Shown: positions 6,411 through 56,478 of the stretch, piece after piece
How the letters are laid out: the number at the start of each line of letters is the position of its first letter
Position numbering within the stretch: the stretch's first letter is position 1
Source of the DNA: Desulfosudaceae bacterium
Lineage (GTDB): Bacteria; Desulfobacterota; Desulfobacteria; Desulfobacterales; Desulfosudaceae
DNA: 64,000 bases
NCBI GenBank assembly: GCA_963674745.2
Contig: CAXXDV010000003.1
Location: forward strand, 2,496,001-2,560,000
Direction: 5' to 3'
Program-made: the position numbers and the translations under genes
Notes under the pieces: generated by a model
What the model was told of the DNA's origin: nothing
What the model saw: the letters and a program-made list of their open reading frames with translations, nothing else
Databases searched by the model: none

Positions 6411-6446
6411 TTGACCATATGTGAATATAATTTGACATTTTGTGAA
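6411..6446 (-). promoter_or_regulatory. tandem-repeat operator, copy 1 (putative AraC site), facing the 6332 to 1 operon
   Basis: Reverse complement reads TTCACAAAATGTCAAATTATATTCACATATGGTCAA. Confidence 0.8.
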
Positions 6447-6560
6447 AATATGAATTTAAAAAATACTGTGCGATACAGAAAAAGCATAAAGTACAAATGT
6501 TTATCGTGGGATTGATGCTGCGGAATACGGGAAGCGAGACGGGAGACGTTTGCAGGAACC

Positions 6561-7610
6561 CTAAAAGGAATGATTCTGCCGGTACTCACCGGGGGTAAAA
6601 CCCGTCCATTTTTTAAATGCCCGGTTAAACGCACTTTGCTCGGAGTAGCCGAGCAGGAATGTAATATCGATAATAGGTATGGGGGATTGTTCGAGCAGCT
6701 GTATGGCGTGCTCTCTTTTTACCTTATCCAGTATGTCCTGATATGTTACGCCTTCTTTGTTTAACTTGATCTGAAGGCTTCTTTTGCTCATGGCAAACTG
6801 ACCGGAAATGGTTTCTATGTCTGTCTTCCCGGAAAGCAAATTCTGAATGATGGCGGTTTCAACCTCTCCGGAAAACAGGTCTTCACGATATATCTTTTTT
6901 TGAAGTTTTTCAGCATATGACTTAAGCGTGTCGAGGATTTCAGCATTGGCGACCAGGACAGGAAGATCCAGATACTTTTTATTAAAGGTCATCTTATTTT
7001 CCGGCTGATTGAACAGCACGGGTATTTTAAAAATACGGTCATGCTCTTTCGTGTCTGTTGGAGACGCATGAATAAACTGAACGCTGTCAAGACTGATCTC
7101 TTCCCCGGTCAGGCGGGTTAACAGATTAATATAATATGCAAAATGGCCTTCAATAAATTGTCGAAGTTCATTCATATCGGTAATTTGATATTGCAATTCA
7201 AGAGACAGGGATGCAGTACTTCCTTTCTCGGAGAACACAGGTATGCATAAATCATGCATCAGGGGGTAATACTTGCAGAAATTGGTCAATGCTTCTCCAA
7301 GGGTTGGAGAGTTAAACGTGATCACATGCATGGCGTCCATAACATAATCGAATACTTCTCCTAGGTGCAGCCCTAAATCGGGGTCATGAATGAGATTCAG
7401 GAGTTCAGTTGCCAAATAGTGACACTTATGGGCGGGTAACCGCTCATTAGGGGCCTTAAGTATATCTGGATCAAAACCCATTCTTTTAAAAAATATCAAG
7501 GGATCAATACCAAACCTGTCTCCCTCCTTGATAAGTATATTAATAAAATCAACCGAAACACTCGGTTCTTTTATGGATCGGGTTCGGCTTTCAGTCAACT
7601 CATTCGACAT
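6561..7610 (-). CDS. AraC-family transcriptional regulator (about 350 aa, OruR/VqsM-type N-terminal ligand domain)
   Basis: C-terminal LLGYSEQSAFNRAFKKWTGFTPGEYR; start set by alignment with the paralog at 41695. Confidence 0.93.
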   Translation of the reverse strand: MSNELTESRTRSIKEPSVSVDFINILIKEGDRFGIDPLIFFKRMGFDPDILKAPNERLPAHKCHYLATELLNLIHDPDLGLHLGEVFDYVMDAMHVITFNSPTLGEALTNFCKYYPLMHDLCIPVFSEKGSTASLSLELQYQITDMNELRQFIEGHFAYYINLLTRLTGEEISLDSVQFIHASPTDTKEHDRIFKIPVLFNQPENKMTFNKKYLDLPVLVANAEILDTLKSYAEKLQKKIYREDLFSGEVETAIIQNLLSGKTDIETISGQFAMSKRSLQIKLNKEGVTYQDILDKVKREHAIQLLEQSPIPIIDITFLLGYSEQSAFNRAFKKWTGFTPGEYRQNHSF

Positions 7611-7706
7611 ATTCGATCTCTTCTTGATGGCATGTTGGTCTGTTTTTCTAAAAATACGCCGCACTTATTATTTTCAGGATATCAATCTATATTTTAAATT
7701 CATTTT

Positions 7707-7742
7707 TTCACAAAATGTCAAATCTTATTCACATTTGGTCAA
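7707..7742 (+). promoter_or_regulatory. tandem-repeat operator, copy 2
   Basis: TTCACAAAATGTCAAATCTTATTCACATTTGGTCAA, divergent from the AraC gene. Confidence 0.8.
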
Positions 7743-7943
7743 TACACAGGGTTCAAATATGCTTTAGATTACTGATTCAACCTGACCTTTTTTAAAAGTA
7801 TTAAACAATTCATAAGCTTCAAACCAGGGCAAAAACAGGAAAACGGGAAAAAAATGAAGCCCATATCAACAGAAAAAACGCCTTTAACACAGAGCCGTTC
7901 GTAACGGCTGCTTGACGCTATAAAAGGATGGCGTCAGGCCCGG

Positions 7944-8744
7944 TTGAAAATCTGGCTGGATATGCATATCGTGGGAAGCCATTTAAGACGGTTGGGCCCT
8001 CTGAGAGTTACCATCGGCGGCGGTTCAATGTATCTGAGTCTGCCCTTGTTTCTGTTCGCTCACCTGGTGTTTATTGAACTGCTTTTAAACCGGATATTAA
8101 CGCCGTTACTGGGCCTTCAGAAGCTGAAAACAACCAATTACATCGTCCTCGACCGCCACCGGACAAAAGGGTTGTCCCGGTTTGACAAATTAAATTGTGT
8201 GTTTTGCGGCTATGCCAACGGTATTTCGGTATTATTGAACGAAAAAATCTGTCAACTTGCTGAACGCAAAAAAGAGCTGGGATCCTTTAGTCCATCATAC
8301 AACATTGTTTTGTTTATAATTGTGGCTGTCTTTCTGCCATTTATGGTAGTTGTGAAATTTGCAGGCATGAACATCATTTACGATATCCTTGTGTCACGTC
8401 CCCTTTACATGCATAGAACCCGGACAAAAGATATCAAGCGTAAAATTCTCAGCACCGGTTCTGCTGATATGTTTAATCAGAACACCTTATTTGATATGCT
8501 GATTCTTCATTCAAAAATAATCGTCATCAGGTTGATAGACGCGCTTGAGCAAATTGAATCAGCATGGTGCCCCCTGAAACATAAGAAAGTCGGAGAAAAC
8601 GTTAAGTATCCGTTACACCACCGGAACTTCTTTGAACCGGATGATCTTGAAGCCATGAGAAGTTCGCTTTATCTGAACGGCACTGTTTCAGACAAAAAAC
8701 CCCTGGTTGAAATTAAAAATCCCGCATATCCTTTAGACAGATAA
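7944..8744 (+). CDS. hypothetical membrane protein with LNCxxCxYANG and WCPxKH motifs
   Basis: Hydrophobic segments and conserved-looking Cys motifs; an upstream in-frame ATG at 7854 is cut off by TAA at 7902. Confidence 0.7.
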   Translation: MKIWLDMHIVGSHLRRLGPLRVTIGGGSMYLSLPLFLFAHLVFIELLLNRILTPLLGLQKLKTTNYIVLDRHRTKGLSRFDKLNCVFCGYANGISVLLNEKICQLAERKKELGSFSPSYNIVLFIIVAVFLPFMVVVKFAGMNIIYDILVSRPLYMHRTRTKDIKRKILSTGSADMFNQNTLFDMLILHSKIIVIRLIDALEQIESAWCPLKHKKVGENVKYPLHHRNFFEPDDLEAMRSSLYLNGTVSDKKPLVEIKNPAYPLDR

Positions 8745-8833
8745 ACGCAGTTTCACGACTGCCCGAACCCGCATATTTCATGAAATAACCGGGCTAAATC
8801 CCGCATCTTCCCAGACTTTCTAAAGCTCATTTA

Positions 8834-8869
8834 TTCACAAAATGTCAAATCATATTCACATCTGGTCAA
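8834..8869 (+). promoter_or_regulatory. tandem-repeat operator, copy 3
   Basis: TTCACAAAATGTCAAATCATATTCACATCTGGTCAA. Confidence 0.8.
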
Positions 8870-8943
8870 TACTTAGAGCTCAAATATGTTCTAGGGTAAT
8901 CATACAACCGAGCTTTTTTACAAATTGGAATAAGGAGAGCCTC

Positions 8944-9765
8944 ATGTTTAAAAACAAAACCATACTCATCACCGGCGGGTCATCCGGGCTTGGACTGGGG
9001 TTGGCTCAGGCACTTTTAGAAAGAGGCGCGCGCCTGATTCTTCTGGCCCGCACGCCAAAAAAACTGGAACAGGCAAAAGAGCGCCTGCTGAAAAACGTTC
9101 CCAACGGAAATGTAGATATCGTCCCCGTGGATGTAAGCGACCGCGAGACGTTGCACGAAGCGCTTGACGATGCTCTGAAAAGGCACCCCTCCCTGGACAT
9201 GGTCATCAACAATGCCGGGATATTAAGGGAAGGTTATTTTGAAAAACTGGCGGTAACGGATTTTGAAGAGATGTTCGGCGCCAACTACTTCGGCTGTCTA
9301 TATATAACGCGGATCACCCTGCCTTACTTGAAAAAATCCCGGGGCCGCCTGATCAACGTTGCATCTGTGGCGGGATTAACCGGCGGATTTGGACTTTCCG
9401 CATACGGCTCATCCAAATACGCGCTTGTTGGATTATCTGAAACATTACGCTGCGAACTAAAGCCACAGGGTGTTACCGTCCAGGTGGTATGCCCCCCGGA
9501 ATTTCTATCTCCCATGGTTGAGGAATTGGATACCTATCGGACACCGGAAAACCTGGCGCATACAATTATGATTCCCAGGCTGTCCCTGGATACTCTGGTG
9601 AAAGATACAGTAAAAGGCATTGAAAAAAACAAATTCAGGATTATCCCCGGCTGGCGGACACGATTGATGCTTCTCGGGGCGCAGCACTTTCCCGGTATCA
9701 GCCGTTTTTTTGCCGACCGGGTAATCAAAAAAGCCTATGTCGGTCCCGACCAGCATAATGGTTGA
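8944..9765 (+). CDS. SDR family oxidoreductase (KDSR-like TGGSSGLG type)
   Basis: TGGSSGLG, NNAG, YGSSK; AAGGAG SD before ATG 8944. Confidence 0.9.
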   Translation: MFKNKTILITGGSSGLGLGLAQALLERGARLILLARTPKKLEQAKERLLKNVPNGNVDIVPVDVSDRETLHEALDDALKRHPSLDMVINNAGILREGYFEKLAVTDFEEMFGANYFGCLYITRITLPYLKKSRGRLINVASVAGLTGGFGLSAYGSSKYALVGLSETLRCELKPQGVTVQVVCPPEFLSPMVEELDTYRTPENLAHTIMIPRLSLDTLVKDTVKGIEKNKFRIIPGWRTRLMLLGAQHFPGISRFFADRVIKKAYVGPDQHNG

Positions 9766-9897
9766 AGCGCCCTCATCAGTCTAACGGAAAAGAGAACCAA
9801 AAGGGTTATATGATCTGGATATATACAGGGGATCTCTAAAAAAGCAATTTTTAGAGGTGCCTTACCGTTTTAATTACAAAAAGGAGATAAGATCACA

Positions 9898-10677
9898 ATG
9901 AAAACGGCACTCATTACCGGCGCGTCAAACGGCATTGGCCTTGAACTGGCCCGATTGTTTGCAAAAGACAAGATCAATGTCATTCTGGTCGCACGCAGTA
10001 AAGACAAATTGAACCGTATTGCCAGTGATTTTGAGCAGCAGTATGGCATCAAGGCGTTACCTGTCTCTGCCGACCTTTCCAGGCCCGGGTCGAGTCATGC
10101 GCTTTTTGAAGAAATCAGCCAGAACAATCATATGGATGTCGAGTTTCTTGTCAATAATGCCGGGGTTGGCATTTGCGGCACCATAAATGACACCAATATT
10201 GAACAAACATCAGCTATGCTTCAGCTCAATATGGTGAGCCTGGCGGAACTGACCATGCTGTTTCTGCCGGGGATGAAAAAAAAGAGAAGCGGTCGTATTT
10301 TAAATATCGGTTCTACTGCCGGTTATGTAATGCCTCACGGCTATGAAGTTGCCTATGCCGCAACAAAGTCCTTTGTGGTCAGCTTTTCAGAAGGCCTGCA
10401 TTTTGAACTGAAAGGGACGGGCGTTTCCTGTACCCATTTGAGCCCCGGCCCTACTCAAAGCAGTTTCTTTGACACGGCCGGTGCGAAAAGCGATGCCCGG
10501 TTACGGAACATGCTGATGGACACGAGGGTTGTGGCGCAAAAAGGGTACCGGGCAATGATGGCCGGGAAAAAGCACACGATCCCCGGCATTACCAATAAAG
10601 TGTTTGCATTTCTGGCCAGCCGGGTATCTCCATCTCGGAGACTGGTTTATACCTTATCCGGTGCGTTTGTAAAGTAG
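9898..10677 (+). CDS. SDR family oxidoreductase
   Basis: TGASNGIG, NNAG, YAATK. Confidence 0.92.
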   Translation: MKTALITGASNGIGLELARLFAKDKINVILVARSKDKLNRIASDFEQQYGIKALPVSADLSRPGSSHALFEEISQNNHMDVEFLVNNAGVGICGTINDTNIEQTSAMLQLNMVSLAELTMLFLPGMKKKRSGRILNIGSTAGYVMPHGYEVAYAATKSFVVSFSEGLHFELKGTGVSCTHLSPGPTQSSFFDTAGAKSDARLRNMLMDTRVVAQKGYRAMMAGKKHTIPGITNKVFAFLASRVSPSRRLVYTLSGAFVK

Positions 10678-10819
10678 TGCCCATCCAGAAATTGCTATTT
10701 TGCCCGATTTCTGTGTCAGGCTCAAATTTTAATCTTCGAAATACGACAAGTATTCCTCCGGTTAAAATTTTCGCCTTCCTTGAACTCGAACAAAATATCT
10801 AATCTCTTGACGGACACTA
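10675..10819. mobile_element. MITE of about 145 bp with TA-flanked terminal inverted repeats
   Basis: Left TAGTGCCCATCCAGAAATT versus right (rc) TAGTGTCCGTCAAGAGATT; no coding capacity. Confidence 0.7.
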
Positions 10820-10854
10820 AAAGGCCAGAGGGGCTGTTTATAGGAGAATAATCT

Positions 10855-11721
10855 ATGTCGCTATTGTTTGTCGAAGAATCTCATCATCCAGGTGTTCCCG
10901 AAATACAGCGTTTTGATGCCACGTCTGTTTATATTATGGTAAAGCGCCCTTCTTTCTCAGGAAGGGAACGGTTTAAAAAAAAATTGTTGTCCGGCTTTGT
11001 GGAACAGGTCAGGTCTGTTGGATCCGCTTTAAATTATACCGCATTTAAGCAGCATCATCTTGTCAGGAGCGGTGCGTTTGCCGCCATTTCCTATATTGCG
11101 ACTCGAAAGCACTTGAATGTCTCATTGCTGAGCCGCATCCGCGGCCTGACACCCCCGAAGCCGTATCATGTTTCCTTGTTTCCATATTATGACGCGGTGA
11201 TAGAATTTCAATTTGCCGACCGGTTGTCAAATAAACAGATAACAACGATCAAAGACCTTGCCCGTTATCTGGCCGGTAAGTGTAAACGGGTTTCCGTCAT
11301 GGAGAGTAATGTCCGCTATCAGGCATTCGACGATAAGAGCCCTGCCAATAAGAATCCTTTTCATATGGTGTTCATTTCACAGGAGCCATCTCATATTGCA
11401 CGTGAAAAAGCGCAAAAACACTGGATAAGTGATCATGCCGCTTTTGTCGTTAATCATGTCAAGTATACAAAAATGATACGCTATCGGATTTCCCATGCAA
11501 CCCTTGATAAAAAAAGCGCATTTGAAAACAGGTATGGCGGAATCGCGTTTGTAGAATTTAAAGGCCTGCCGGCTTTTATGCGTAACATGCTCAATCCCAA
11601 TGCGGTAAGGCTCAACAATTCAATCGTGCTGGATGAAATGAATTTATCGGCAGAGTCCAGAATTATGCTGATGAAAGAATACGATCTCGGGGCTAAAGGG
11701 AGCGGAAAGGAGGACACCTGA
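10855..11721 (+). CDS. EthD-like (dimeric alpha/beta barrel) two-domain protein
   Basis: YDAVIEFQF, HWISDHA, YGGIAFVEF and DEMN are typical EthD motifs. Confidence 0.65.
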   Translation: MSLLFVEESHHPGVPEIQRFDATSVYIMVKRPSFSGRERFKKKLLSGFVEQVRSVGSALNYTAFKQHHLVRSGAFAAISYIATRKHLNVSLLSRIRGLTPPKPYHVSLFPYYDAVIEFQFADRLSNKQITTIKDLARYLAGKCKRVSVMESNVRYQAFDDKSPANKNPFHMVFISQEPSHIAREKAQKHWISDHAAFVVNHVKYTKMIRYRISHATLDKKSAFENRYGGIAFVEFKGLPAFMRNMLNPNAVRLNNSIVLDEMNLSAESRIMLMKEYDLGAKGSGKEDT

Positions 11722-11745
11722 TTCAGGCAAACAAGGGGGTACAGT

Positions 11746-12273
11746 ATGACTGAAGACGCAACCATGAACAATCAGAGCAGGCGATCGTTTTTCAAATCGA
11801 GTTTTAAAATGCTTACCGCCATTGGCCTGGGCGGAATATTTTACAGCGCTGCCAGATTTCTCGGTTCTGATTCGACTCCGGAGACAGGCCATAGCCATGC
11901 TTTTGGTGCCTTTCATCCGGACAATGAACGCATGACCGGATCAGGCGGCGGACTTCGCGCCTCAAAGGCCGCTGACGGTCGATATGAACTTGAGACTGAA
12001 TCCGTCCCCGCAGGCGTTGGCGCCGTTGTGTCTGCAGGAAGCCTGCCCATACTGGTAGTCCACGGGACGAACGGTTTCAGGGTATTTAACGCCACCTGCA
12101 CTCATCTTGGATGCCTTGTGAAATGGGATCCGGCGGCCAACATGTTCATCTGCCCCTGCCACGGCGGAAAATATGATGCAAACGGTCAGGTCATTGCCGG
12201 CCCACCTCCGAGTGCCCTTAAAGAACACACCGTTGCTGAAAAAGACGATATGATCAGAATTGCCATCACATGA
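11746..12273 (+). CDS. Rieske 2Fe-2S protein of a Rieske/cytochrome b complex
   Basis: Tat motif SRRSFFK, CTHLGC, CPCHGGKY, GPPP. Confidence 0.93.
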   Translation: MTEDATMNNQSRRSFFKSSFKMLTAIGLGGIFYSAARFLGSDSTPETGHSHAFGAFHPDNERMTGSGGGLRASKAADGRYELETESVPAGVGAVVSAGSLPILVVHGTNGFRVFNATCTHLGCLVKWDPAANMFICPCHGGKYDANGQVIAGPPPSALKEHTVAEKDDMIRIAIT

Positions 12274-13517
12274 CAAAAAACATAATCGACACCTTTTTAA
12301 ACCGCGTTCGAGTCAGGCTGAAAGCAGCCGGTACTGTAAAAGCGCAGATTTTTTCCCGTTCCACCTTACAGCCGGAGAGCCGGCTTGATTACCTGGCCTA
12401 TTCCGGGACAGTCATTGCGGTACTGCTGGTGATTCAGTTTGCAACGGGCGTGCTGCTTTTACTTCATTATGAACCCTTTCCCTCGCGTGCGTTCTCATCT
12501 CTGCTGACCATCAGGAACGATGTTGAGTACGGACTGTTGTTTTCCAACCTTCATTCCGTGGGTTCCAAGCTGATTATACTGGTGATGTTTATTCACATGT
12601 TCAGGATTATGCTGGTTTCTGCCCACCGCGGCCCACGGTCCCCCCAGTGGTATGTCGGCGTTGGTCTCGCTTTTTTAATGCTTTTTACCGGTTTCTCCGG
12701 ATATCTTCTGCCCTGGTCCCAGCAGTCTTTCTGGGCCTGTGTTGTCGGTACCGAGTCGCTTCGCGTTTTTCCCGTCATTGGAAACACCGCCACATGGCTT
12801 CTACGGGGCGGTTCCGAAGTTAACGGCCTGACCCTGACCAGATTTTACTGGCTTCACATCACCCTGCTCCCCATTTCAATCATATACCTGGCATGGCTGC
12901 ACATAAAAATGGTCTGGAGAACAGGCGTGGCCGGGCCGGCAAAATCTTTTGCGGACGTGGCCACCGAAAATTGCGTGGGCTGCGGCAAATGCCGACAGGT
13001 CTGCTCGTTTAACGCGGTTTCCATGAAAGAGGATGGGGACAAAAAAGACAAACCGCTGATTGATCCTTCCAGATGCAATGGTTGCCGGGCCTGTGTGGAG
13101 GAATGCCCCAACGCCTGCATCTTCCTGTTCAAGGGAACAGAACCGTGCCGGTTGGAGCCCATATTTCCGGATAATATTGTCAGGAGAATGCTTGCGGTCT
13201 TCATTACAGTGGTAGTTCTTTTCGGATTTTCGTATTTCGGCCACGCTTTTCACAAGATCCCGGCCGACCCCATGCTGACACCGGAACGGATAAAGCCCGA
13301 CTGGTATTTCCTGGGGGCGTATCAATTCCTGAAAGCACTGCCAAGCGAAACCTGGGGGATACTGGCAATGCTGGCAATCTGTATCCTGATTGCGATTCTG
13401 CCGATTATTGACAAGTCAGGTTCCAGAAATCCCCGGCGTCGACCTGTATATATGCTGCTTGTTATTGGCGGTATTTCAGGGTTTATCATATTCACCTTCT
13501 GGGGATGGGTTTCCTGA
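12270..13517 (+). CDS. cytochrome b (b6-like N domain plus subunit IV-like C domain) with inserted 2x[4Fe-4S] ferredoxin domain
   Basis: Heme His pairs, GYLLPW, PDWYF Qo motif, CVGCGKCRQVC and CNGCRACVEECP; ATGA overlap with the Rieske gene. Confidence 0.92.
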   Translation: MTKNIIDTFLNRVRVRLKAAGTVKAQIFSRSTLQPESRLDYLAYSGTVIAVLLVIQFATGVLLLLHYEPFPSRAFSSLLTIRNDVEYGLLFSNLHSVGSKLIILVMFIHMFRIMLVSAHRGPRSPQWYVGVGLAFLMLFTGFSGYLLPWSQQSFWACVVGTESLRVFPVIGNTATWLLRGGSEVNGLTLTRFYWLHITLLPISIIYLAWLHIKMVWRTGVAGPAKSFADVATENCVGCGKCRQVCSFNAVSMKEDGDKKDKPLIDPSRCNGCRACVEECPNACIFLFKGTEPCRLEPIFPDNIVRRMLAVFITVVVLFGFSYFGHAFHKIPADPMLTPERIKPDWYFLGAYQFLKALPSETWGILAMLAICILIAILPIIDKSGSRNPRRRPVYMLLVIGGISGFIIFTFWGWVS

Positions 13518-13518
13518 C

Positions 13519-14316
13519 ATGAAAAAATATTTTTTCCTGCTATTCCTCCTGCTCGTCCTGGTTTCAAAAACAACGGCACAGGACAGATTATTTCTGCTCC
13601 AGGACAACTGCATTAAATGCCATCTGTGGTGCGAGACAAAAAGCGGCGAAAACTCGGTTGTCAAATGGAAAAGGAGCGTTCATTTCAGGCCGGATACCGC
13701 CTGCGCCGACTGCCATGGCGGCGATCGGCTTTTATATCTGGATTTTAAAGCCGGACACATGGGAATGCCTGACAGAAACCAATCAGTAGGGATGTGCGAA
13801 CAGTGTCATGAGCAGGCTGTACGTGATTTCATAGGCCGCAAGGTGTCGCAGACAAAAAACAATAAGTGCACGGTAAGCTGCGTTGACTGCCACGGGCATC
13901 ACCAGATTGAAAAACCGGATGCTCCGGCCATGTTCCAAAGAACCTGCCGTAAATGTCATTCTCCGGACAAAGCCGCCGCGATTGCAAACACGATACAAAA
14001 AACAGAATCCCGCCTGGCATTTGTTGAGGCGGAAATAAAGTCCCACGAAACATCCGGACTGCCGGTTCTGACCCCGAAGGAAATGCTGAAAGATATTCAA
14101 CGGCAGTATGCGCGGGGATTTCACAAAAATACGTTTTCAAAACAGGAACCGTTTCTGACTGGAGAATTGTCATATGCAATAGATGATCTTGAAGACCGTT
14201 TGGGCCGTTCAGCCCCGAACCAATGGCATATTCAGGGGTATATGGTCATAGCCTTTCTGGGCCTGATCTGTGTTTTGCTGACGGCCTACTTAGCGACCCT
14301 GAAAAAGAAAGAATAA
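13519..14316 (+). CDS. pentaheme cytochrome c, signal peptide and C-terminal TM anchor
   Basis: CIKCH, CADCH, CEQCH, CVDCH, CRKCH. Confidence 0.9.
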   Translation: MKKYFFLLFLLLVLVSKTTAQDRLFLLQDNCIKCHLWCETKSGENSVVKWKRSVHFRPDTACADCHGGDRLLYLDFKAGHMGMPDRNQSVGMCEQCHEQAVRDFIGRKVSQTKNNKCTVSCVDCHGHHQIEKPDAPAMFQRTCRKCHSPDKAAAIANTIQKTESRLAFVEAEIKSHETSGLPVLTPKEMLKDIQRQYARGFHKNTFSKQEPFLTGELSYAIDDLEDRLGRSAPNQWHIQGYMVIAFLGLICVLLTAYLATLKKKE

Positions 14317-14335
14317 AAAATTTGGGAGGAAAATC

Positions 14336-14674
14336 ATAAACGACACATGCCAAGACAAGACAAACTGCCCCTGGACAGGAAGGATCGCCCTGATCCTCGC
14401 CCTTGTTGCTGTTTTTATGGCGTTTAAGGCCGGGCATTCCTCAAAAATCAACGCCATAACCAGCATCAATGAGATGATAACGGACAAGGTCGTACCCCAG
14501 ATGGCCAGGGCCACCGAAAGGGATGTCATCGGCCATATCTACGATCTGAAACGGACCATGGTTACCCTTGAGGAGATAAAGGAGACCACGGCCAACGAGG
14601 ACGTCAAAGCCATGGTGGACAAAATCCGCAAGGACATTGAGGAACTTAACGTCAAACTCTTTGTGCATGAATAG
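14336..14674 (+). CDS. small single-TM coiled-coil protein, apparent ATA start codon
   Basis: GGAGGA SD 5 nt before ATA at 14336, open in frame to the track ORF 14417..14674; the extension adds TM helix IALILALVAVFMAF. Confidence 0.65.
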   Translation: MNDTCQDKTNCPWTGRIALILALVAVFMAFKAGHSSKINAITSINEMITDKVVPQMARATERDVIGHIYDLKRTMVTLEEIKETTANEDVKAMVDKIRKDIEELNVKLFVHE

Positions 14675-14679
14675 GGGGT

Positions 14680-16545
14680 ATGGCCATGCCTGATAAGGAC
14701 AAGCCGGAAAACATTTTCCAAAAACCGATCAACCGCCGTAATTTTTTAAAAATAAGCGCTGCCGCAGCAGCGGCCGGCGTAATGGGGCCCGGACTTTCAG
14801 GCTGTGCCCCGGAGATTTACCGGGGCCATTACCCGGATGTGCCCGAAAACCATGTCTCGCTTTCGCCCAACGGGAAAAGTGTGCTCATCCTGGGCGGTGG
14901 TTTCGGCGGCATGCACGCGGCCTGCGAACTGCTTGACCGGGGTTTTGAAGTCACGATTATCGAAAAATCAAGCATGCTCGGGGGAAAACTCAAGAGTTGG
15001 CGGGATCCCGGGTTCGGCATCCCGCCCACGGATGATCCCAACTGGAAGGGATATCCCAGGGATCACGGTGCGCACGCGGTGTGGGGGTTTTACAACAACC
15101 TGAGAGAATTCATGGGCAGACACGGCTATAAACTGGCGACCTTCCCCCGGGAATCCACCATGTACAATTTTCTGGATAAAGACGGTTCCCAGGCTGTCAT
15201 GGGTTCTGCACCCACATGGCCCGGCCCCCTGGCAAATCTTCAAAGAGGCCTTGAGACAAAACATGCCATTGAAAAATTAACCGGAGAAGATCCGGGCGCC
15301 ATGCTGTACATGAACAAAATCTTTGGCTTTGACTATGAGAGCAAGAAGCAGCGGGCCTATCTGGACAGCATTTCTTTTCCCGAGTGGGCGCGACTGGTAG
15401 GCATACCGGACAAGCTGATTTATAAGTTCTTCGGTCCCACGTCTGAAATGGCCATGTTCGACCACATCGATAACACCAGCGCGCTCTATATGCTGACAAC
15501 GCTGAGCCTGGGCTCGGGCAGTTATAGGGACATGTGCGTTGATATTTTCACCCACCCTCCCGGCGAAACCTATGCCGAGCCCATTGAGCGCTACATCCTG
15601 GCCAAAGGCGGAAAGATCATTTATGACATGCCGGTCATCAAGGTCAATCATGACGGCAGAAAGATTAAGAGCGTCCTTGCCGGTGATGAAAATTTTGTCC
15701 CGGGTGTGAAAAACTGGAAATGTAATGTCTGCGGATCAACCTTTCCTTCGCCGGCCAAGCCGTTCAGATGCCCGGTATGCGGTGCCCCCATTACCCAGAT
15801 CAGGGCCCTGTCTTCAGGCCCGCCTAAAGAATACCTGGCGGATTATTATGTGGTTGCCATGGACACGCCCGGCGCCAAACAGGTGGTGGCAAAATCGGGG
15901 CTGCTGGGGGACACCTATTTTGACAATATCATGAAGCTGGATGCGACCGGCGTCTATGTTGTCAATTTATGGTATGCCGACTGCAATGCATGGGAGCGCC
16001 GTTTTCCCAAACATGGTGATTTTTTCGCTTCCGGATTCAAGTTTCTGGGCATCACGCTCAACTGGGCGGTTTCTCGAAAATCCAAAGACGGACAAGACAG
16101 ACAATACCTTGTACCGGATTATCAGGGCAAAAACATCAACGTGATTGAAACCCAGATAGCCAATACCGAGCGGGTGGAGAACAAATCAGACGAAGAAATC
16201 GCCCGGCTGGTTCACGAGGAGTTATTGTGCGTGATGCCGGATTTACCCGTGCCGACGGATTTTTATGTCAACCGGTGGGACACCTATTCACCCCAGCGGA
16301 CCGGGTACGAGGCCCTGCGACCCGATATTCAGAGCCCGGTAGACAACCTGTTTTTCATCGGCGACTGGGTTCTGACAAACCATGAAAGCGTTTATATGGA
16401 GAAAACCAACGTGGCCTCAAAAATGGTGACCAACCTGTTACTGGACAAGATCGGACAAAAACAGGGCCGTATGAAAATACTGAAAAGCGGCGATCCCGAC
16501 CTTACGATGAGGGTACTCAAAGCGTTAAACAATCCATACCCGTAA
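14680..16545 (+). CDS. Tat-exported lipoprotein FAD oxidoreductase (amine oxidase/carotenoid desaturase CrtU-PDS-HpnE superfamily) with rubredoxin-like insert
   Basis: RRNFLK...LSGC lipobox, ILGGGFGG, LGGK, DHGAHAVWGFYNNL, CNVC...CPVC insert, NLFFIGDW. Confidence 0.85.
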   Translation: MAMPDKDKPENIFQKPINRRNFLKISAAAAAAGVMGPGLSGCAPEIYRGHYPDVPENHVSLSPNGKSVLILGGGFGGMHAACELLDRGFEVTIIEKSSMLGGKLKSWRDPGFGIPPTDDPNWKGYPRDHGAHAVWGFYNNLREFMGRHGYKLATFPRESTMYNFLDKDGSQAVMGSAPTWPGPLANLQRGLETKHAIEKLTGEDPGAMLYMNKIFGFDYESKKQRAYLDSISFPEWARLVGIPDKLIYKFFGPTSEMAMFDHIDNTSALYMLTTLSLGSGSYRDMCVDIFTHPPGETYAEPIERYILAKGGKIIYDMPVIKVNHDGRKIKSVLAGDENFVPGVKNWKCNVCGSTFPSPAKPFRCPVCGAPITQIRALSSGPPKEYLADYYVVAMDTPGAKQVVAKSGLLGDTYFDNIMKLDATGVYVVNLWYADCNAWERRFPKHGDFFASGFKFLGITLNWAVSRKSKDGQDRQYLVPDYQGKNINVIETQIANTERVENKSDEEIARLVHEELLCVMPDLPVPTDFYVNRWDTYSPQRTGYEALRPDIQSPVDNLFFIGDWVLTNHESVYMEKTNVASKMVTNLLLDKIGQKQGRMKILKSGDPDLTMRVLKALNNPYP

Positions 16546-26712: not shown

Positions 26713-26821
26713 AAAATTGCGGCACGACTTTAATATCTCCCGGATTACCTTTAATGCCCCGACCGCGCAAATTTCTTCCGGTACTCCCCGGGGTTAATCC
26801 AGTCCTTTTTACATTTGTTTT

Positions 26822-26857
26822 TTCACAAATTGTCAAATCATATTCACTTATGGTCAA
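26822..26857 (+). promoter_or_regulatory. tandem-repeat operator, copy 4
   Basis: TTCACAAATTGTCAAATCATATTCACTTATGGTCAA. Confidence 0.78.
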
Positions 26858-27099
26858 TACATAGCGCTCAGATATGGTTTAGCCTAATCATTCAGCAGGG
26901 CCATTTATCGACAAATTGGAATAAGCAAAACCCGGTATGAGTAAAAGATAACGGCGGAACTGATGGCCACCCATCAGTTCAGACTTAAAATTATCGTTCC
27001 ATGGTGGAAGTCAATATGAACAAGGGAGAGCATAAGGCCATGAAGACAATCGTGGCCTTTTAATCGTAAAATTCATGAATATAAAAAGGAATTATTGTC

Positions 27100-27453
27100 A
27101 TGAGGTTAAAGATTCTACTGTTGGGCCTGTACTGGTTGCTCTGGTTTTCTTCCAAGACCAACGCCTCTTTTAAGCAGTTTATCCGCAAGGCCAAGGTCCG
27201 GTTTATGATCCGGACAGAAGACGGTCGGTATGCCCGGCTGTTTGTGTTCGACCAGGGCAAAGTCACCACTGCCGTGGGCCCGGACCATCCTTTTGACGCG
27301 GCCCTGACCTGGAAGGACGCCAAAACAGCTTTTTCCACTATGTTAAAGCAGAACATGGAGGCGTTTTTCTACGCTGCCGCAGACGGAAAACTGAGAATAG
27401 AGGGGATGCCTGTGTATGCCCAGTGGTTTGATGCGGCGATGAAGCATATCTGA
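27100..27453 (+). CDS. SCP2 sterol/lipid-binding-like small protein
   Basis: 117 aa; C-terminal ADGKLRIEG resembles the SCP2 GKLKVxG motif. Confidence 0.6.
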   Translation: MRLKILLLGLYWLLWFSSKTNASFKQFIRKAKVRFMIRTEDGRYARLFVFDQGKVTTAVGPDHPFDAALTWKDAKTAFSTMLKQNMEAFFYAAADGKLRIEGMPVYAQWFDAAMKHI

Positions 27454-27500
27454 AAATTCCATATTTAATCATCACAGATAAGAGAGAAGAGGAGAGTCAC

Positions 27501-29168: not shown

Positions 29169-29204
29169 GCAGTTCATATATACATGACGCCTGGAGGACG
29201 AGAC

Positions 29205-40639: not shown

Positions 40640-41695
40640 TTACAAAAGAGACAAATAATTCTGACGGTACTCACCGGGGGTAAAACCCGTCCATTTTTTA
40701 AAGGCCCGGTTAAAAGCGCTTTGCTCGGAGTAGCCGAGCAGGAAGGTGATATCGACGATAGGTATCTGGGATTGTTCAAGCAGTTGTATGGCGTGCTCTC
40801 TTTTTATCTTATCCAGTATGTCCTTATACTTTACCCCTTCTTTGCTTAGCTTGATCTGCAGGTTTCTTTTACTCATGGCCAGCTGACTGGAAATGGTTTC
40901 GATATCCGTCTTTCCGGAAAGTAAATTGTCAATTATCGCGGCTTCAACCTGTTCGGAAAACAGGTTTTCATGAAATATCTGTTTTTGAAGTTTCTCGGCA
41001 TGGGCCTTAAGTGTATCCAGGATTCCAGCGTTGGCAACCAGCACCGGCAGCGCCACGTATTTTCTATTAAAAGTCATCTTGTTTTCCTGCTGGTTAAACA
41101 GGACAGGACTTTTAAAAATACGATCATGCTCTTTTGTGCTTGCCGGTTGCGGATGAATAAACTGAACGCTGTCAAGCCTGATATGTTTACCGGTCAGACG
41201 GGTTAACAGATTATCATAATAAGCAAAATGGCCTTCGATAAAATGTCGGAGTTCATTCATATCTGTAAGTTCATATTGCAATTCAAGACAGATGGATGCG
41301 GTGCTGCCTTCCTCTGTAAAAACAGGTACGCAGACATCATGTATCAGGGGATAATACTTGCAGAAATTTGTTAATGCTTCACCCAGGGTGGGTGAGTTAA
41401 AGGTGATCACATGCATGGCATCCATAAAGAAATCAAATGCTTCACCCAGGTGCAGCCCGATATCGGGGTCATGAATGAGTTTCAGAACGGCTCTTGCCAG
41501 GTCATGCCCCTGCTCGGCGGGTAACCGCCCATTAGGGGCCTTGAGTAAATTTGAATCAAAACCCACTGTTTTTAAAAACCATTCGGGATCAATACCAAAT
41601 CGATCCCCCTCTTTGACAAGCATATTAATGAAGTCGACCGAAAAACTGGGATTTTTTATGATTTTGGCCTGGCGTCTGGTCAGCTCATTCGTCAT
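40640..41695 (-). CDS. AraC-family regulator (close paralog of 6561..7610)
   Basis: Shared segments such as MHVITFNSPTLGEALTNFCKYYPL and a near-identical HTH. Confidence 0.94.
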   Translation of the reverse strand: MTNELTRRQAKIIKNPSFSVDFINMLVKEGDRFGIDPEWFLKTVGFDSNLLKAPNGRLPAEQGHDLARAVLKLIHDPDIGLHLGEAFDFFMDAMHVITFNSPTLGEALTNFCKYYPLIHDVCVPVFTEEGSTASICLELQYELTDMNELRHFIEGHFAYYDNLLTRLTGKHIRLDSVQFIHPQPASTKEHDRIFKSPVLFNQQENKMTFNRKYVALPVLVANAGILDTLKAHAEKLQKQIFHENLFSEQVEAAIIDNLLSGKTDIETISSQLAMSKRNLQIKLSKEGVKYKDILDKIKREHAIQLLEQSQIPIVDITFLLGYSEQSAFNRAFKKWTGFTPGEYRQNYLSLL

Positions 41696-41765
41696 ATTCG
41701 GTCTCTATTTTATGGTGTGTTGATCGGCTTTCATAAGATACTCTAATGTTTTTTAAATTCATTTT

Positions 41766-41801
41766 TTCACAAAATGTCAAATCATATTCACATTTGGTCA
41801 A
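41766..41801 (+). promoter_or_regulatory. tandem-repeat operator, copy 5, upstream of the GRE operon
   Basis: TTCACAAAATGTCAAATCATATTCACATTTGGTCAA. Confidence 0.8.
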
Positions 41802-42142
41802 GACATAGTGCTCGAATATAATTTAAAATATATATTTAACCGGGCCTTTTCTTTACAAACTGGGATAAGGAATGGAACTCTACTCTCGTGTGATCAGGCA
41901 CCTCGGCACAAACTGCATCGGCGTTTCCAGTGTTCAGAATAGAGCTGTTTAATAACACGACCTTGATTGTTTTTATTTGAATTTAGGAAACGGGGAACAT
42001 TGTTGTTGCCTTAGATTGTTTTATGTGCATAATCAAATATATAGACCGTTTCACGGCAGAAGTGTTTTTTAGAAAGCAGGATGCCGTAAAAGCTTCGTTC
42101 AGGCAAAGCGAATAGTTTGCGACTGCAAATAAGGAGGGTATC

Positions 42143-44863: not shown

Positions 44864-44898
44864 CCCGAATATTTACCGTCCCTAAAAAACCGTTTACG

Positions 44899-45888
44899 AT
44901 GTTCGACAAATTAAAACGCTTTTCCGGTAATTTTATAAGAACGTCTTCGGGCAAATCCCGTGAACCCGATGTCGCAGGCCGTATTTTTAATATCCAGAAG
45001 TTCAGTATTAACGATGGCCCGGGAATCAGGACCACTGTTTTTTTTAAAGGGTGCCCGCTGCACTGTGCCTGGTGCTCCAACCCGGAATCGATCAATCCCA
45101 ACCCCGAACTGATAACCAACTTTCAGGTCTGCGTCCACTGCAACCAATGCGTCGAGGCATGCACGCAAAACGCCATCATTGTAGAAAATTCCGAAAACAG
45201 CAGACCGGTGAGATCGATCAACCGCGAGAAGTGCAACGCATGCATGGATTGCGTCAAAAACTGTACCTCGGGTGCCCTGCGCTCTACAGGAAGTACTGTC
45301 TCTGCAAAAGCGGTTCTGGAAAAGGTCGAGCAGGACGTACCTTTTTACAACAACAGCGGTGGCGGGATCACCCTCTCCGGAGGCGAGCCCTTGCTTCAGC
45401 CTGAGTTTGCCCTTGCCATCCTGAAGCTCAGCAAGAGAAAAAAAATTCACACGGTTCTGGATACCAGCGGCTACGCTCAGAAAGAAGTCTTCAAAACCGT
45501 GCTGCCGTTTCTTGACCTGGTCATGTTTGACGTTAAGCATATGGATCCGGGAATTCACAAAAAATATACCGGGGTGGACAACAGGATAATTCAGGAAAAT
45601 CTCGGGTACCTGAACGGGAAAGTCAATATCTGGCTGCGCGTGCCTTTGATTCCGGGGTTCAACGATGACCAAGAAACGATTATCAAAATACTGGACCTGG
45701 CCGGGGATCTTTGTATAGAAAAGCTCTTTTTCCTGCCTTACCATCAATGGGGGATCGGTAAGTATTCGGGTTTGGGAAGAACATATACATTATCTGGTTT
45801 GGAGTCCATCCCTGATGAGAAAATTGAAGTTATAAGACATTTATGTAAATCCAGGAAAATCCGCAATTATGATATCGAACAGGGATAA
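44899..45888 (+). CDS. GRE-activating radical SAM enzyme with 2x[4Fe-4S] insert
   Basis: DGPGIRTTVFFKGCPLHCAWCSNPES, CVHCNQCVEAC, CNACMDCVKNC, GGITLSGGEP. Confidence 0.95.
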   Translation: MFDKLKRFSGNFIRTSSGKSREPDVAGRIFNIQKFSINDGPGIRTTVFFKGCPLHCAWCSNPESINPNPELITNFQVCVHCNQCVEACTQNAIIVENSENSRPVRSINREKCNACMDCVKNCTSGALRSTGSTVSAKAVLEKVEQDVPFYNNSGGGITLSGGEPLLQPEFALAILKLSKRKKIHTVLDTSGYAQKEVFKTVLPFLDLVMFDVKHMDPGIHKKYTGVDNRIIQENLGYLNGKVNIWLRVPLIPGFNDDQETIIKILDLAGDLCIEKLFFLPYHQWGIGKYSGLGRTYTLSGLESIPDEKIEVIRHLCKSRKIRNYDIEQG

Positions 45889-46127
45889 TCCGGGCCCCTA
45901 TCATATCTCATTTTTTTACATTCATTTTTTCGCAAGAAGTACAGGGTAATGCAGATAAAAAATTTGCACGACAAAAAGGAATAGCAAAAGTGGCCGTCAG
46001 CAGATCTTTTTTTTGAAGATGATGTCGGAACGGCATGGATAAAATGGTTCATAAATAGTTATTTCCTGCGTTACAGGTAATTTTTTAGGGTAAAAAGAGA
46101 ACCAGAAAACCATTATGCGAAAGGCCT

Positions 46128-47207
46128 ATGACCAGCAAAGCCGAAAAATTACCTTCACCTGAAAAAAATAACGGGTTAAAGACGGATTCACCGAAAACCA
46201 GCGGCGCTTTTCAATCGGGGATAAAAAGAGCCCTGCCCCTGGTCGTGAGCGGCCTGCTCCTTTATTATTATTTTCGCGACCAGGACTGGGGTTCCCTGCT
46301 GGCCGCCGCCGGCAGGGCGGAAATAACAACGGCTGTCCTGGCCATCCTGATCCCCCAGTTAATCATCTGGATTTTTGACGTGTTGATAATCGATCGTCAC
46401 TTTCGCTGGTTCCACGCCCCATTTGACTGGCGCGCTTTCTTCCGGGTGCGCGGCGCCTTCTACATCATCCTTCTCGTCAACTACACCATCGGCGGCGGAG
46501 GGCTGCTGCTTTACCTGAAGCGCAAAACAGGCATGACCTGGGCAAGGTTGATGGGGATCGGCCTGTTCCGTTTCGGGCTGACCATGTTCGGCCTCTGCCT
46601 GCTCCTGATCCCGGCCACACTGGCCATGCAGTATTACGGCCTGGCAGCCAGGGCCCGGCTCAACATGCACCTCTGGTGGGCGGGGCTGATATTCAGCACC
46701 CTGTGGATGATTGAATCATGGACGTACTGGCACCACAAGCGCGGCGCCGGTCTCAGCAGCCTGCTCGCCGGCAACCGGGAAAGCGAGTTCTGGACAGCGT
46801 TTCAGAATGCATCCAAAAGGCAGTGGTTCCTTACCTGGGCCATGGGGCTGCCGCCGATTTTCATCATGCTCTCCGGTGTCTATATTCTGGCACTGGCGTT
46901 CAACATCCGCATTCCCTTGCCGGAATATATTGTCGTTGCGCCACTGATGTTTGTGATTGCAGACCTGCCGGTTTCATTCGGCGGGTTCGGCACCATGACC
47001 ATGGCCTGGTTCCTGTTCTTTGGTGATTACGGGGCAAGCGAAAATATCGCGGCACTGACCCTTTTTCTGCCGACCGTTCGCGCGATCATCAGGGCCGCCA
47101 TAGGGATGGTTTCACTGCCGTTCGCCATGAAAGACATCCCGACGCTGCTCAACGGCGGTATGCAGGGAACAGCGGATCAACCACAGCCGGAACCCGGAGA
47201 AGCATGA
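46128..47207 (+). CDS. LPG-synthase TM/flippase-like membrane protein
   Basis: About 8 TM; LPVSFGGFG resembles the PxxxGGxG family motif. Confidence 0.65.
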   Translation: MTSKAEKLPSPEKNNGLKTDSPKTSGAFQSGIKRALPLVVSGLLLYYYFRDQDWGSLLAAAGRAEITTAVLAILIPQLIIWIFDVLIIDRHFRWFHAPFDWRAFFRVRGAFYIILLVNYTIGGGGLLLYLKRKTGMTWARLMGIGLFRFGLTMFGLCLLLIPATLAMQYYGLAARARLNMHLWWAGLIFSTLWMIESWTYWHHKRGAGLSSLLAGNRESEFWTAFQNASKRQWFLTWAMGLPPIFIMLSGVYILALAFNIRIPLPEYIVVAPLMFVIADLPVSFGGFGTMTMAWFLFFGDYGASENIAALTLFLPTVRAIIRAAIGMVSLPFAMKDIPTLLNGGMQGTADQPQPEPGEA

Positions 47208-54749: not shown

Positions 54750-54780
54750 TTCGAAAAGTGCCGGAAGTTTCGACATGTAA

Positions 54781-54817
54781 GGCTGCCCTGCAATGTCCGT
54801 TGCAGGGCAGCCTTTTT
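54781..54817 (+). terminator. intrinsic terminator, homologous to 36050
   Basis: GGCTGCCCTGCAA...TTGCAGGGCAGCC-TTTTT. Confidence 0.8.
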
Positions 54818-54912
54818 CCTGGTTCTGTAAATCCATTGCTGTCAGCCAAACCCGATTACCTGGTTGAGCCGGAAACGTCCATTCTTTTGCCAGACTCTGG
54901 AAAGGTCAATAA

Positions 54913-56046
54913 ATGAACAAACGAAAGATAGCCTTCTATTCATTGCCGGCACTTGCCCTGTTTGTTATTGCTGTCGGCGTGGCCCTCTGGTTGGGCAGAT
55001 CCCGGCCTGAAATCCATGCTACGGAGACACCCCGTCCGGCAGCTGCCGTAGAACAACAGCCTGCCCTACAGGCAAAAGAGCCCTCGCTCCCCAAAGCGCC
55101 GCCGGCTGCTGAAAAACCGGAAACCGATGTATTTGATATGCCCGACGCCATGCGCTTTCAGATGGCCGACGTCGCCGAAGCGTACAGGGAAAACATGCGT
55201 TACCCGAAGTACTCGATACCACTTAAAGAAACCGATTGGGACCTGCTTAATCCGCGGCCGTTCATTCCCAGGGAATCTCCCCTGAAAAACGGGCTGTCGG
55301 CCACAATGATCCTTGACCATTATATCGTCAGCCGGAGCAGGGACCTGCCCGTAAAACTCATTATCAGAGGCGGGCAGGAAGACGGAAATTATGCTGTCGA
55401 TGTGGCCCTTTCCCTTTCTGACAAGGGGAAGACACGGCCTTTGATCAGTCTTAATGAATCCGACTGGAATGAGAATACCGTTACTTACACCGGGACCATC
55501 CCCGCAGACAAGCTAAAAGACGCGGGACCGGGCGAGGTGATCATCAACGCCGGGATATCCTTTGCAAATGGCGAAGACGAAAAGGTCGTCACCGTTGTCA
55601 AGCTGTTTGATAATGCAGCGACCCTGACCGATCTTGGCGAACCCTATATTGACGGGGCAGACCTGGTGATACCGGCACACCTGGACGTTCAAACTCCCGG
55701 GCATTACCGTTTCCAGGCCAACCTGTATGACGAATCCGGCCAGCAACCGATCAGTCATTTGAATTCGGAATTTGAGTTGTCCGAAGGGAGCAGTTCCGGG
55801 TTGGTCAGGGTGCATGCCGCCACCTTGAGAAACGGCGGTGATCCGGGTCCGTATCTGCTGAAAGATATCAATGTTACCAAGAGTCCGGAAAACCCGGGTG
55901 AGAGAACGGGTTACGGCTCATCTGCGTCAGATTCTTTCCTTGTTCAGGGGTTTCACTTAAACAGCTACAGCGAGGAGCCCTATGAAAACCCCCAGACCAA
56001 ACAACGGCTGGAATTCCTCCAGAGGTTAGCCGCAGGCAGTGACTAG
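54913..56046 (+). CDS. single-TM partner protein (paralog of 36258)
   Basis: Shared MADxAEAYRxNMxYPKYS and QPISHLNS...LVRVHAATLR. Confidence 0.8.
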   Translation: MNKRKIAFYSLPALALFVIAVGVALWLGRSRPEIHATETPRPAAAVEQQPALQAKEPSLPKAPPAAEKPETDVFDMPDAMRFQMADVAEAYRENMRYPKYSIPLKETDWDLLNPRPFIPRESPLKNGLSATMILDHYIVSRSRDLPVKLIIRGGQEDGNYAVDVALSLSDKGKTRPLISLNESDWNENTVTYTGTIPADKLKDAGPGEVIINAGISFANGEDEKVVTVVKLFDNAATLTDLGEPYIDGADLVIPAHLDVQTPGHYRFQANLYDESGQQPISHLNSEFELSEGSSSGLVRVHAATLRNGGDPGPYLLKDINVTKSPENPGERTGYGSSASDSFLVQGFHLNSYSEEPYENPQTKQRLEFLQRLAAGSD

Positions 56047-56442
56047 CCATTATCTACTATTGTGAATCAATCCGTTATTTTCAGTGGTCATGGCTTGCTG
56101 TGCCGGTTGATCCGGGCAATACCCGGTTTTGCGCGGCTTCAGAAAGATTTTCCAGAATTTCATGAAGCGCTTACCAATGCTGGACACCGCCTGATGAAGA
56201 AACGGAACATTCGAACCACTTGTTTTTCTTAACGCCCGGAAACCGTTGTCCATAATGCCTATGACCGGCAAATTCGAAAAAGATGACGGGTTAAAGACGG
56301 ATTTCCTTTATGCCCCCCCGCCCCGGGCGAGGTGTTTTCCTGCCGGGCAGAAGGCGCTTTTCAAACCATACGTACCATTTTTATCAGCGCCACGATTTTC
56401 GATTCATCCGGGAATGTCCCGGCCATTTTTTAAATTCATTTT

Positions 56443-56478
56443 TTCACAAAATGTCAAAGCATATTCACATATGGTCAA
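56443..56478 (+). promoter_or_regulatory. tandem-repeat operator, copy 6
   Basis: TTCACAAAATGTCAAAGCATATTCACATATGGTCAA. Confidence 0.8.

Follow-up and report, generated by a model that had tools for sequence, protein, structure and literature searches.

We report here that a 64,000-nucleotide stretch of the genome of a Desulfosudaceae bacterium (G000:C3:2496001-2560000; "the window" below means this whole stretch) contains six copies of a 36-bp tandem element, each embedded in a larger conserved promoter block, and that the source genome (5.55 Mb, 50 % G+C) contains seven. Based on sequence comparison, we put the probability at roughly 75 % that the seven blocks are activator-dependent promoters of one regulon under two AraC-type regulators encoded in the window, AraC1 and AraC2, with the 36-bp element as their predicted operator.

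The tandem pattern TTCACAAAATGTCAA-N6-TTCACATNTGGTCAA was present at 6411(-), 7707, 8834, 26822, 41766 and 56443, at each of the positions named in the initial annotation of this DNA, without a mismatch in five copies and with 2 mismatches in the copy at 26822. No match was obtained in 100 dinucleotide-preserving shuffles. A scan of the whole source genome located a further copy at G000:C3:2489722(+), 6278 bp before the start of the window, so that the earlier count of six holds for the window and the genome total is seven. All seven lie within one 63-kb stretch and all are ahead of gene starts; the scattering throughout the genome irrespective of gene starts that had been proposed as the sign of a mobile repeat was not observed. 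When a half-site weight matrix was applied to the genome in tandem (20-22 bp spacing), seven sites scored 45.8-49 bits and, besides two reverse-strand shadows of real sites, none reached the 22-bit floor. With an nhmmer profile of the 110-bp block, likewise, the E-values of the seven sites were 1.6e-25 to 8.4e-24, and that of the next match was 1.5. The 36-bp element is real, far above chance and restricted to one 63-kb stretch.

We examined the anatomy of the block in an alignment of 13 copies, 7 from the source genome and 6 from three relatives, comprising 26 half-sites. The conserved block covers about 105 bp (roughly -20 to +85, counted from the core start), in agreement with the earlier statement that similarity extends into the downstream spacer. 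Its parts are a pair of 15-bp direct repeats (TTCACA-N4-GTCAA), a weak candidate -35, a TAnnnT candidate -10 and a leader of about 40 nt. The half-site period is exactly 21 bp in 13/13 copies. Within the half-site consensus T-T-C-A-C-A-w-a-w-k-G-T-C-A-A, positions 2, 3, 5 and 12-15 are invariant (26/26), and positions 1, 4, 6 and 11 are kept in 24-25 of the 26 half-sites. These positions form two near-invariant boxes about one helical turn apart, box A (TTCAC, positions 1-5) and box B (GTCAA, positions 11-15). Each half-site is near-palindromic, yet the difference between TTCAC and GTCAA is retained in every copy (n = 26), as would be expected of a monomer whose two reading heads differ and not of a symmetric dimer. 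The 6-bp linker ATCATA and the 7 bp 3' of half-site 2 (TACATAG) are also highly conserved among the 13 copies.

Downstream of the repeats, a -10-like hexamer occupies offsets 58-63 from the core start (T58 and A59 in 13/13 copies, T63 in 11/13). The TA-starting hexamers listed earlier (TAGATT, TAGGGT, TAGCCT, TAAAAT and TAAATT) are found at exactly these offsets, and the copy at 6411 carries TAGTTA in place of TAnnnT after a 1-nt deletion. The best -35 for this hexamer matches 3/6 consensus positions. A sigma-70 consensus scan with a 9-of-12 filter was passed by none of the three blocks within positions 1-20000, as expected for activator dependence. The first start codon follows on the same strand 90-377 nt past the core start in the 12 copies with a located start, which bears out the claim that each copy faces an operon start; the start downstream of the 7707 copy is uncertain. 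In five copies ahead of genes of the short-chain dehydrogenase/reductase (SDR) type, ribosome-binding site (RBS) and start codon come 110-112 nt past the core start, and the remaining distances are 90, 114, 137, 147, 278 and 377 nt, the last of these in block 5, where the start at 42143 belongs to a glycyl radical enzyme (GRE). A third half-site-like stretch at offset 45 scored -11.4 to 8.2 bits in the 13 copies and was not consistently kept; it was rejected as a third half-site and probably overlaps the -10 region by descent. An RNA element was likewise rejected, as an Rfam scan of the window at gathering threshold yielded no family.

Two of the copies are divergent from the AraC paralogues, as the initial annotation had noted, 7707 from AraC1 and 41766 from AraC2, the distance from core to araC start codon being 97 and 71 bp, respectively. 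As each araC gene thus starts close to its own copy on the other strand, autoregulation is likely. For AraC1 we adopt the conserved ATG at 7610, the open frame from GTG 7664 being too long. Both proteins combine a PF12625 sensor domain (E = 7.7e-35 in AraC1, 3.8e-35 in AraC2) with a DNA-binding domain that has a pair of helix-turn-helix (HTH) motifs (HTH_18, E = 3.1e-17 and 1.9e-16, respectively; HTH_AraC above cut-off in both; PF12833 / PF00165). Overall identity between the paralogues is 78 %, with 74.7 % for the sensor half and 87 % for the DNA-binding half; their second recognition helices are identical and the first differ in one residue, so that the description of their HTHs as near-identical was accurate. 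Among the four AraC orthologues introduced below, the DNA-binding domain is nearly invariant and the sensor halves differ. All NCBIfam scores were below cut-off, for AraC1 with QhpR at 193.6 (cut-off 250), GliR at 178.8 (570) and CypR at 91.0 (500), and for AraC2 at 189.7, 174.1 and 101.7, respectively. AraC1 and AraC2 are members of the AraC/XylS family and not equivalogs of any named regulator, QhpR, GliR and CypR included. A search of 5.8 billion proteins returned only environmental relatives, of which a handful were 74-89 % identical and another group 40-52 %.

On the opposite strand of the distal half-site we observed a perfect TTGACA, followed 17 nt on by TTTAAA, in a conserved T-tract block TTTTTTAAATTCATTTT (window 7687-7721 and other copies). 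This is a possible candidate for the divergent araC promoter. The T-tract block is retained also in copies without a divergent gene.

We surveyed the distribution of the motif at a threshold of <= 3 mismatches in 12 further family genomes and in a sample of 388 genomes from elsewhere in the order. Three of the 12 family genomes contain it, G010 with 3 copies, G007 with 2 and G005 with 1, and none of the 388 others does; a reversed control pattern gave 0 matches throughout. AraC orthologues (E <= 1e-30, family) are encoded twice in the source genome and once each in G010 and G007. All four are divergent from a copy, and this copy drives an SDR-type gene except at AraC1 of the source genome, where it faces an extra open reading frame (ORF) at 7944. 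The motif was not found in the 9 family genomes that lack both the regulator and the acetylene-hydratase-like gene described below. Beyond these genomes, a metagenome contig (L034) encodes an AraC protein of 53 % identity with the block at the same place (profile E = 2.9e-4); half-site 1 is kept at 14/15 positions, half-site 2 has diverged, and AATACATA and TAGATT are kept. Among 29 metagenome loci the block was found only on this contig, and another contig, L035, encoding an AraC protein of 90 % identity, ends short of the expected position of the copy. In a phylum sample, AraC relatives at E <= 1e-60 occurred in 2/400 other genomes and, with 36-37 % identity, are too far removed to share the operator; an AraC scan of genome contigs returned the G007 contig and seven weak Fibrobacteria matches. 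For four SDR promoters with homologous SDR genes (six pairs), identity was 0.89-0.94 in the core, 0.78-0.88 at third codon positions and 0.28-0.40 at positions -60 to -21. Judged from these comparisons, the operator core is under constraint.

The list of regulon members in the initial annotation lacked the most conserved one, which is encoded upstream of the window behind the seventh copy. This 798-aa molybdopterin enzyme (G000:C3:2490169-2492565; L019:14169-16565) matches the acetylene hydratase of Pelobacter acetylenicus (PDB 2e7z) at E = 8e-215 and 718.8 bits. It keeps the Fe-S cysteines, Asp13 and the metal ligand Cys141, whose roles (Fe4S4 motif, Asp13, Cys141) are given in PMC12096430. 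The residues lining the acetylene site are listed in PMC7970554 as Ile113, Ile142, Trp179, Trp293 and Trp472. Two of these five, Trp179 and Trp293, are kept; His replaces Ile113, and Gln replaces Ile142 and stands at the position of Trp472. As the enzyme in addition has an insert of about 70 residues, acetylene itself is probably not the substrate. There is no TAT (twin-arginine translocation) signal and no adjacent electron-transfer subunit. The hydrophobic ring of acetylene hydratase comprises six residues, Ile14 included, and to our knowledge the sole known function of the family is acetylene hydration. No regulator, AraC or other, of acetylene hydratase or its relatives is described in the titles and abstract openings of the searchable open-access literature; that literature offered nothing relevant on this gene set (GRE, AraC, SDR, sulfate reducers), and two 2026 papers on anaerobic benzene degradation mention acetylene hydratase only in their reference lists.

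Orthologues of this enzyme, 89-91 % identical, occur in exactly 4/13 family genomes, the same four that carry the motif. Its gene is the only member found behind the motif in all four, and it is joined to the motif through three different junctions. In the source genome and G005 the order is motif, nitroreductase, enzyme; in G010 the motif stands directly ahead of the enzyme gene; and in G007 (contig C316; L009:277-576) the block is followed by an RBS and a remnant of the first SDR codons (MFKDKIM...), about 180 nt and then the enzyme gene. The G007 junction proves that a whole promoter block, along with the opening codons of its own gene, was duplicated ahead of a different gene, and the different junctions are best read as independent recruitment of the acetylene-hydratase-like gene behind the motif. 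In G007, as on metagenome contig L035, the enzyme and araC genes are convergent. In the complete, one-contig genome G005, the single copy precedes the nitroreductase and enzyme genes (L017:9899-10036). There, the nitroreductase is intact and of the TM1586 type, and a transposase gene lies directly past the enzyme gene.

We propose that the 36-bp element would form the upstream half of seven sigma-70 promoters and be bound by AraC1 and/or AraC2. Two monomers, joined via their PF12625 domains, would bind the two half-sites head to tail, 21 bp apart, and each monomer would use its two HTH motifs to read box A and box B of one half-site. If the -10 is at offsets 58-63 and transcription begins about 7 nt further on, the half-sites would be at about -70/-56 and -49/-35, which we take to be the positions of XylS at Pm. 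Given this XylS/Pm-like geometry, the seven blocks may be read as class II, activator-dependent promoters in which the proximal monomer would contact RNA polymerase at a -35 with at most a 3/6 consensus match. A ligand in the N-terminal PF12625 domain would switch activation on, both divergent araC genes would be autoregulated, and the regulon would have grown as the promoter block was copied ahead of newly joined genes. What the sequences show is anatomy, genomic distribution, conservation and co-occurrence; binding, activation, start site, ligand and operon extents are what we infer here.

Several observations weigh against this reading. The linker and the 7 bp 3' of half-site 2 are conserved as strongly as the half-sites, so that some of the identity may stem from recent copying and not from protein contacts. 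There are two overlapping -10 candidates, the hexamer at offsets 58-63 and a second one, TATGGT, at offsets 51-56; if the latter is the -10, the proximal half-site fully covers the -35, and repression is possible. The excess of core identity over synonymous sites in the SDR promoters is modest. Finally, G005 is without an AraC orthologue (best match 27 % identity), and the operator can thus persist, or work, without this regulator.

One alternative is that the blocks are a recently duplicated promoter-plus-leader cassette, its identity inherited or due to gene conversion, with no common regulator. The similarity does span about 105 bp including linker, spacer and leader, copying is proven by the G007 junction, and the island contains transposases and decayed duplicates. 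We nevertheless consider this unlikely, because conservation peaks sharply on both half-sites and drops on either side, because the core is more conserved between genera than synonymous sites while the sequence far upstream is random, and because half-site 1 and the -10 survive beside the AraC of only 53 % identity on L034. Copying accounts for the origin of the blocks but not for their maintenance.

A second explanation, which we regard as improbable, is a real operator that belongs to another regulator encoded elsewhere, the AraC genes being mere neighbours. It would accommodate the retention of the element in G005, as well as the near-palindromic half-site (TTCAC-N5-GTCAA versus the palindromic TTGAC-N5-GTCAA), which scores 12.7 bits on the opposite strand. 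However, the divergent arrangement recurs at 4/4 AraC orthologues and at the 53 % relative, half-site asymmetry is retained in 26/26, a 21-bp direct-repeat period is typical of the AraC/XylS family, and the motif is missing from just those 9 family genomes without AraC and without the acetylene-hydratase-like gene. It is very improbable that the element is a mobile or structural repeat (of the MITE, miniature inverted-repeat transposable element, or REP, repetitive extragenic palindrome, kind) or a sigma-54 promoter: some copies have a TGG (offsets 29-31) and a GC (offsets 42-43) at -24/-12 spacing and the window encodes three sigma-54 activators, but the -12 GC is present in only 4/13 copies and the sigma-54-like sites of the window precede other genes, on which grounds the sigma-54 reading was rejected, and the MITE/REP reading was rejected in view of only 7 copies, within 63 kb of one island and all tied to gene starts, and of the missing Rfam match.

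With an AraC1/AraC2 regulon as the preferred reading, the predicted promoter blocks, the regulators and the genes behind the copies are collected in Table 1.

Table 1. Predicted promoter blocks, regulators and gene units (window coordinates; aa, amino acids; TPP, thiamine pyrophosphate)
Feature	Coordinates (strand)	Core	-10 candidates	Description
Block 1	6361..6466 (-)	6411-6446	TATGGT 6390-6395; TAGTTA 6383-6388	Unit start ATG 6332
Block 2	7687..7792 (+)	7707-7742	TATGCT 7758-7763; TAGATT 7765-7770	Divergent from AraC1; faces ORF 7944-8744
Block 3	8814..8919 (+)	8834-8869	TAGGGT 8892-8897	RBS AAGGAGAG; SDR ATG 8944, 110 nt from core start
Block 4	26802..26907 (+)	26822-26857 (2 mismatches)	TAGCCT 26880-26885	Faces 27100-30032
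Block 5	41746..41851 (+)	41766-41801	TATAAT 41817-41822; TAAAAT 41824-41829	Divergent from AraC2
Block 6	56423..56528 (+)	56443-56478	TAAATT 56501-56506	SDR ATG 56553
AraC1	6561..7610 (-)			349 aa from conserved ATG 7610; PF12625 sensor domain and two-HTH DNA-binding domain
AraC2	40640..41695 (-)			351 aa; PF12625 and two-HTH AraC domain
Unit behind block 1	3..6332 (-)			ADC-like protein, SDR, alpha/beta hydrolase, SDR, exported START-domain protein, glyoxalase-fold protein, FMN-dependent 2-hydroxy-acid dehydrogenase
ORF behind block 2	7944..8744 (+)			Single membrane-like protein, start uncertain
Unit behind block 3	8944..16545 (+)			SDR, SDR, EthD-like, Rieske, cytochrome b fused to 2x[4Fe-4S] ferredoxin domain, multihaem cytochrome c, TAT-exported amine-oxidase/phytoene-desaturase-like flavoprotein; extent predicted
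Unit behind block 4	27100..30032 (+)			117-aa protein, TPP enzyme (acetolactate-synthase/2-hydroxyacyl-CoA-lyase group), SDR
Unit behind block 5	42143..47207 (+)			906-aa GRE, radical-SAM activase, membrane protein
Unit behind block 6	56553..58261 (+)			SDR and EthD-like protein, paralogues of 8944-9765 and 10855-11721
Unit behind seventh copy	Upstream of window			Internally deleted nitroreductase gene, 798-aa molybdopterin enzyme, SDR
Decayed duplicate of seventh unit	30240..30782 (+)			Leader, nitroreductase remnant, first 91 codons of acetylene-hydratase-like gene (75 % identical)

The last gene of the unit behind block 1 extends beyond the start of the window. In this unit the START-domain protein (1612-2646(-)) has a signal peptide and the ADC-like protein (5490-6332(-)) an N-terminal anchor or lipoprotein-like signal; given also the cytochromes and the TAT flavoprotein behind block 3, these signals suggest that part of the system is extracytoplasmic. 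The ORF at 7944-8744 had no family match in the family searches. The EthD-like assignment in the 8834 unit is given by language-model features only (score 0.92). On the + strand between 8834 and 20000, the sole strong terminator is at 19912-19941, and sigma-54-like sites precede the starts at 16658 and 17792; the extent of the 8834 transcript is therefore a prediction, and the unit would be co-transcribed past 11721. The ORF at 27100-27453, encoding the 117-aa protein, had been taken by eye for SCP2-like, a claim for which Pfam gives no match at E <= 0.05.

The SDR and EthD-like proteins are encoded in the window by separate overlapping genes, and the same-genus relative G010 (L014:16479-18119) has one 546-aa ORF, with a further molybdopterin enzyme gene downstream at 18609. 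The decayed duplicate breaks off after its 91 codons and is without an operator. Between the regulated units we observed HipA/HipB-type toxin-antitoxin genes, a truncated DUF4143 ATPase gene and a DDE transposase gene (37537-39124, 39654-40556 and 49561-51006), a content that fits a mosaic genomic island. Sigma-54-type -24/-12 sequences are present at 16553-16568, 17714-17729 (a perfect match), 22453-22468, 34815-34830 and 53464-53479, 69-105 bp ahead of the starts at 16658, 17792, 22522, 34891 and 53568, and three sigma-54 activator genes lie near these sites (20137-22227(-), 47231-49294(-) and 51210-53279(-)). The arrangement resembles a second regulon, made up of mostly unknown proteins and interspersed with that of AraC; the total number of sigma-54 pattern matches in the window is not above chance.

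The GRE behind block 5 (42143-44863) contains PF01228 and PF02901, and all its NCBIfam equivalog scores are below cut-off. About 95-117 additional residues immediately precede the Cys loop. A C-x-E loop is typical of dehydratase/eliminase-type glycyl radical enzymes; here the loop reads VACVGAG, and the Glu two residues past Cys that the eliminase/dehydratase-type signature requires was not found. In the C-terminal part, the match to benzylsuccinate/methylalkylsuccinate synthase is about as good as that to eliminases.

The initial annotation had described a dispersed AraC regulon in which one ligand signal activates one catabolic pathway. A shared AraC operator is likely, given the distribution of the motif, the divergent arrangement at 4/4 orthologues and the block on L034; the idea of one ligand and one pathway received no comparable support. 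There are two regulators, and their sensor halves differ (74.7 % identity). The GRE is behind the motif only in the source genome and was not found in G010 or G007, a 55 % homologue being encoded in G003, which is without motif and regulator; in the parts of G010 and G007 that the comparison covered, no Rieske, cytochrome b or flavoprotein gene was found. No direct support was obtained for fatty acids or sterols as the class of substrate. The small conserved core of the regulon is predicted to comprise the acetylene-hydratase-like enzyme, the SDR/EthD pair and the hydrolase/ADC/SDR/FMN-dehydrogenase unit, enlarged in the source genome.

The best lead to the chemistry of the island is the acetylene-hydratase-like enzyme. 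We tentatively suggest that the acetylene-hydratase-family W/Mo enzyme with its remodelled, more polar pocket, the Glu-less GRE with its insertion of about 95 residues and the exported Rieske/cytochrome b/flavoprotein module might form an inducible catabolic island, an anaerobic route, as yet undescribed, for a compound that is alkyne-like or otherwise unsaturated and inert, with the AraC paralogues as sensors; if so, the paralogues would be a ready-made reporter for substrate discovery. The regulatory principle is textbook. The value of the locus lies in the grouping of enzymes by their operator, several of them without an assigned substrate: a changed-pocket acetylene-hydratase-family enzyme, an orphan GRE, an EthD-like/SDR pair and an exported redox module would come under one predicted on-switch. 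A block placed with its araC gene in a reporter strain would provide a handle for finding the substrate of the island, and relatives of acetylene hydratase would gain a testable physiological context. The locus also illustrates how a regulon may grow through the copying of a whole promoter block before newly acquired genes.

The known systems that come closest are XylS/Pm in operator architecture and GliR in protein family. The 798-aa enzyme is like the acetylene hydratase of Pelobacter acetylenicus in its Fe-S cysteines, Asp13 and Cys141 and in two tryptophans of the pocket, and unlike it in the His/Gln/Gln replacements and the insert. At araBAD (I1-I2), according to PMC8151288, AraC occupies direct-repeat half-sites beside the RNA polymerase site, its gene is transcribed divergently and switching depends on a ligand. 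The window shares direct-repeat half-sites, here beside a predicted polymerase site, and the divergent regulator, and a ligand switch is proposed here; by contrast, its sensor domain is of a different type and no distant O2-type site was found here, the stretch at offset 45 scoring -11 to 8 bits. GliR (PA3027) of Pseudomonas aeruginosa is encoded, according to PMC8151288, divergently from the main operon it targets, and it acts on a small set of dispersed promoters via a 15-bp motif over the -35. AraC1 and AraC2 have its PF12625 and HTH_18 architecture, and GliR and QhpR are their best-scoring characterised families. However, AraC1 reaches 178.8 bits where the cut-off is 570, the motif of GliR is unrelated and rich in GC, and the targets of GliR are glycerolipid genes of an aerobe. 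XylS at the Pm promoter of the Pseudomonas putida TOL plasmid differs in its boxes (TGCA/GGTA, here TTCAC/GTCAA); here the sensor is of the PF12625 type, and seven promoters and two regulators, known from sequence alone, share one operator. In common with the blocks described here, the target of XylS is a pair of 15-bp direct repeats; each has a 5' box A and a 3' box B, which the two HTH motifs of a XylS monomer read (PMC5481539). XylS is an AraC-family activator of a catabolic operon, and the same role is predicted here for AraC1 and AraC2.

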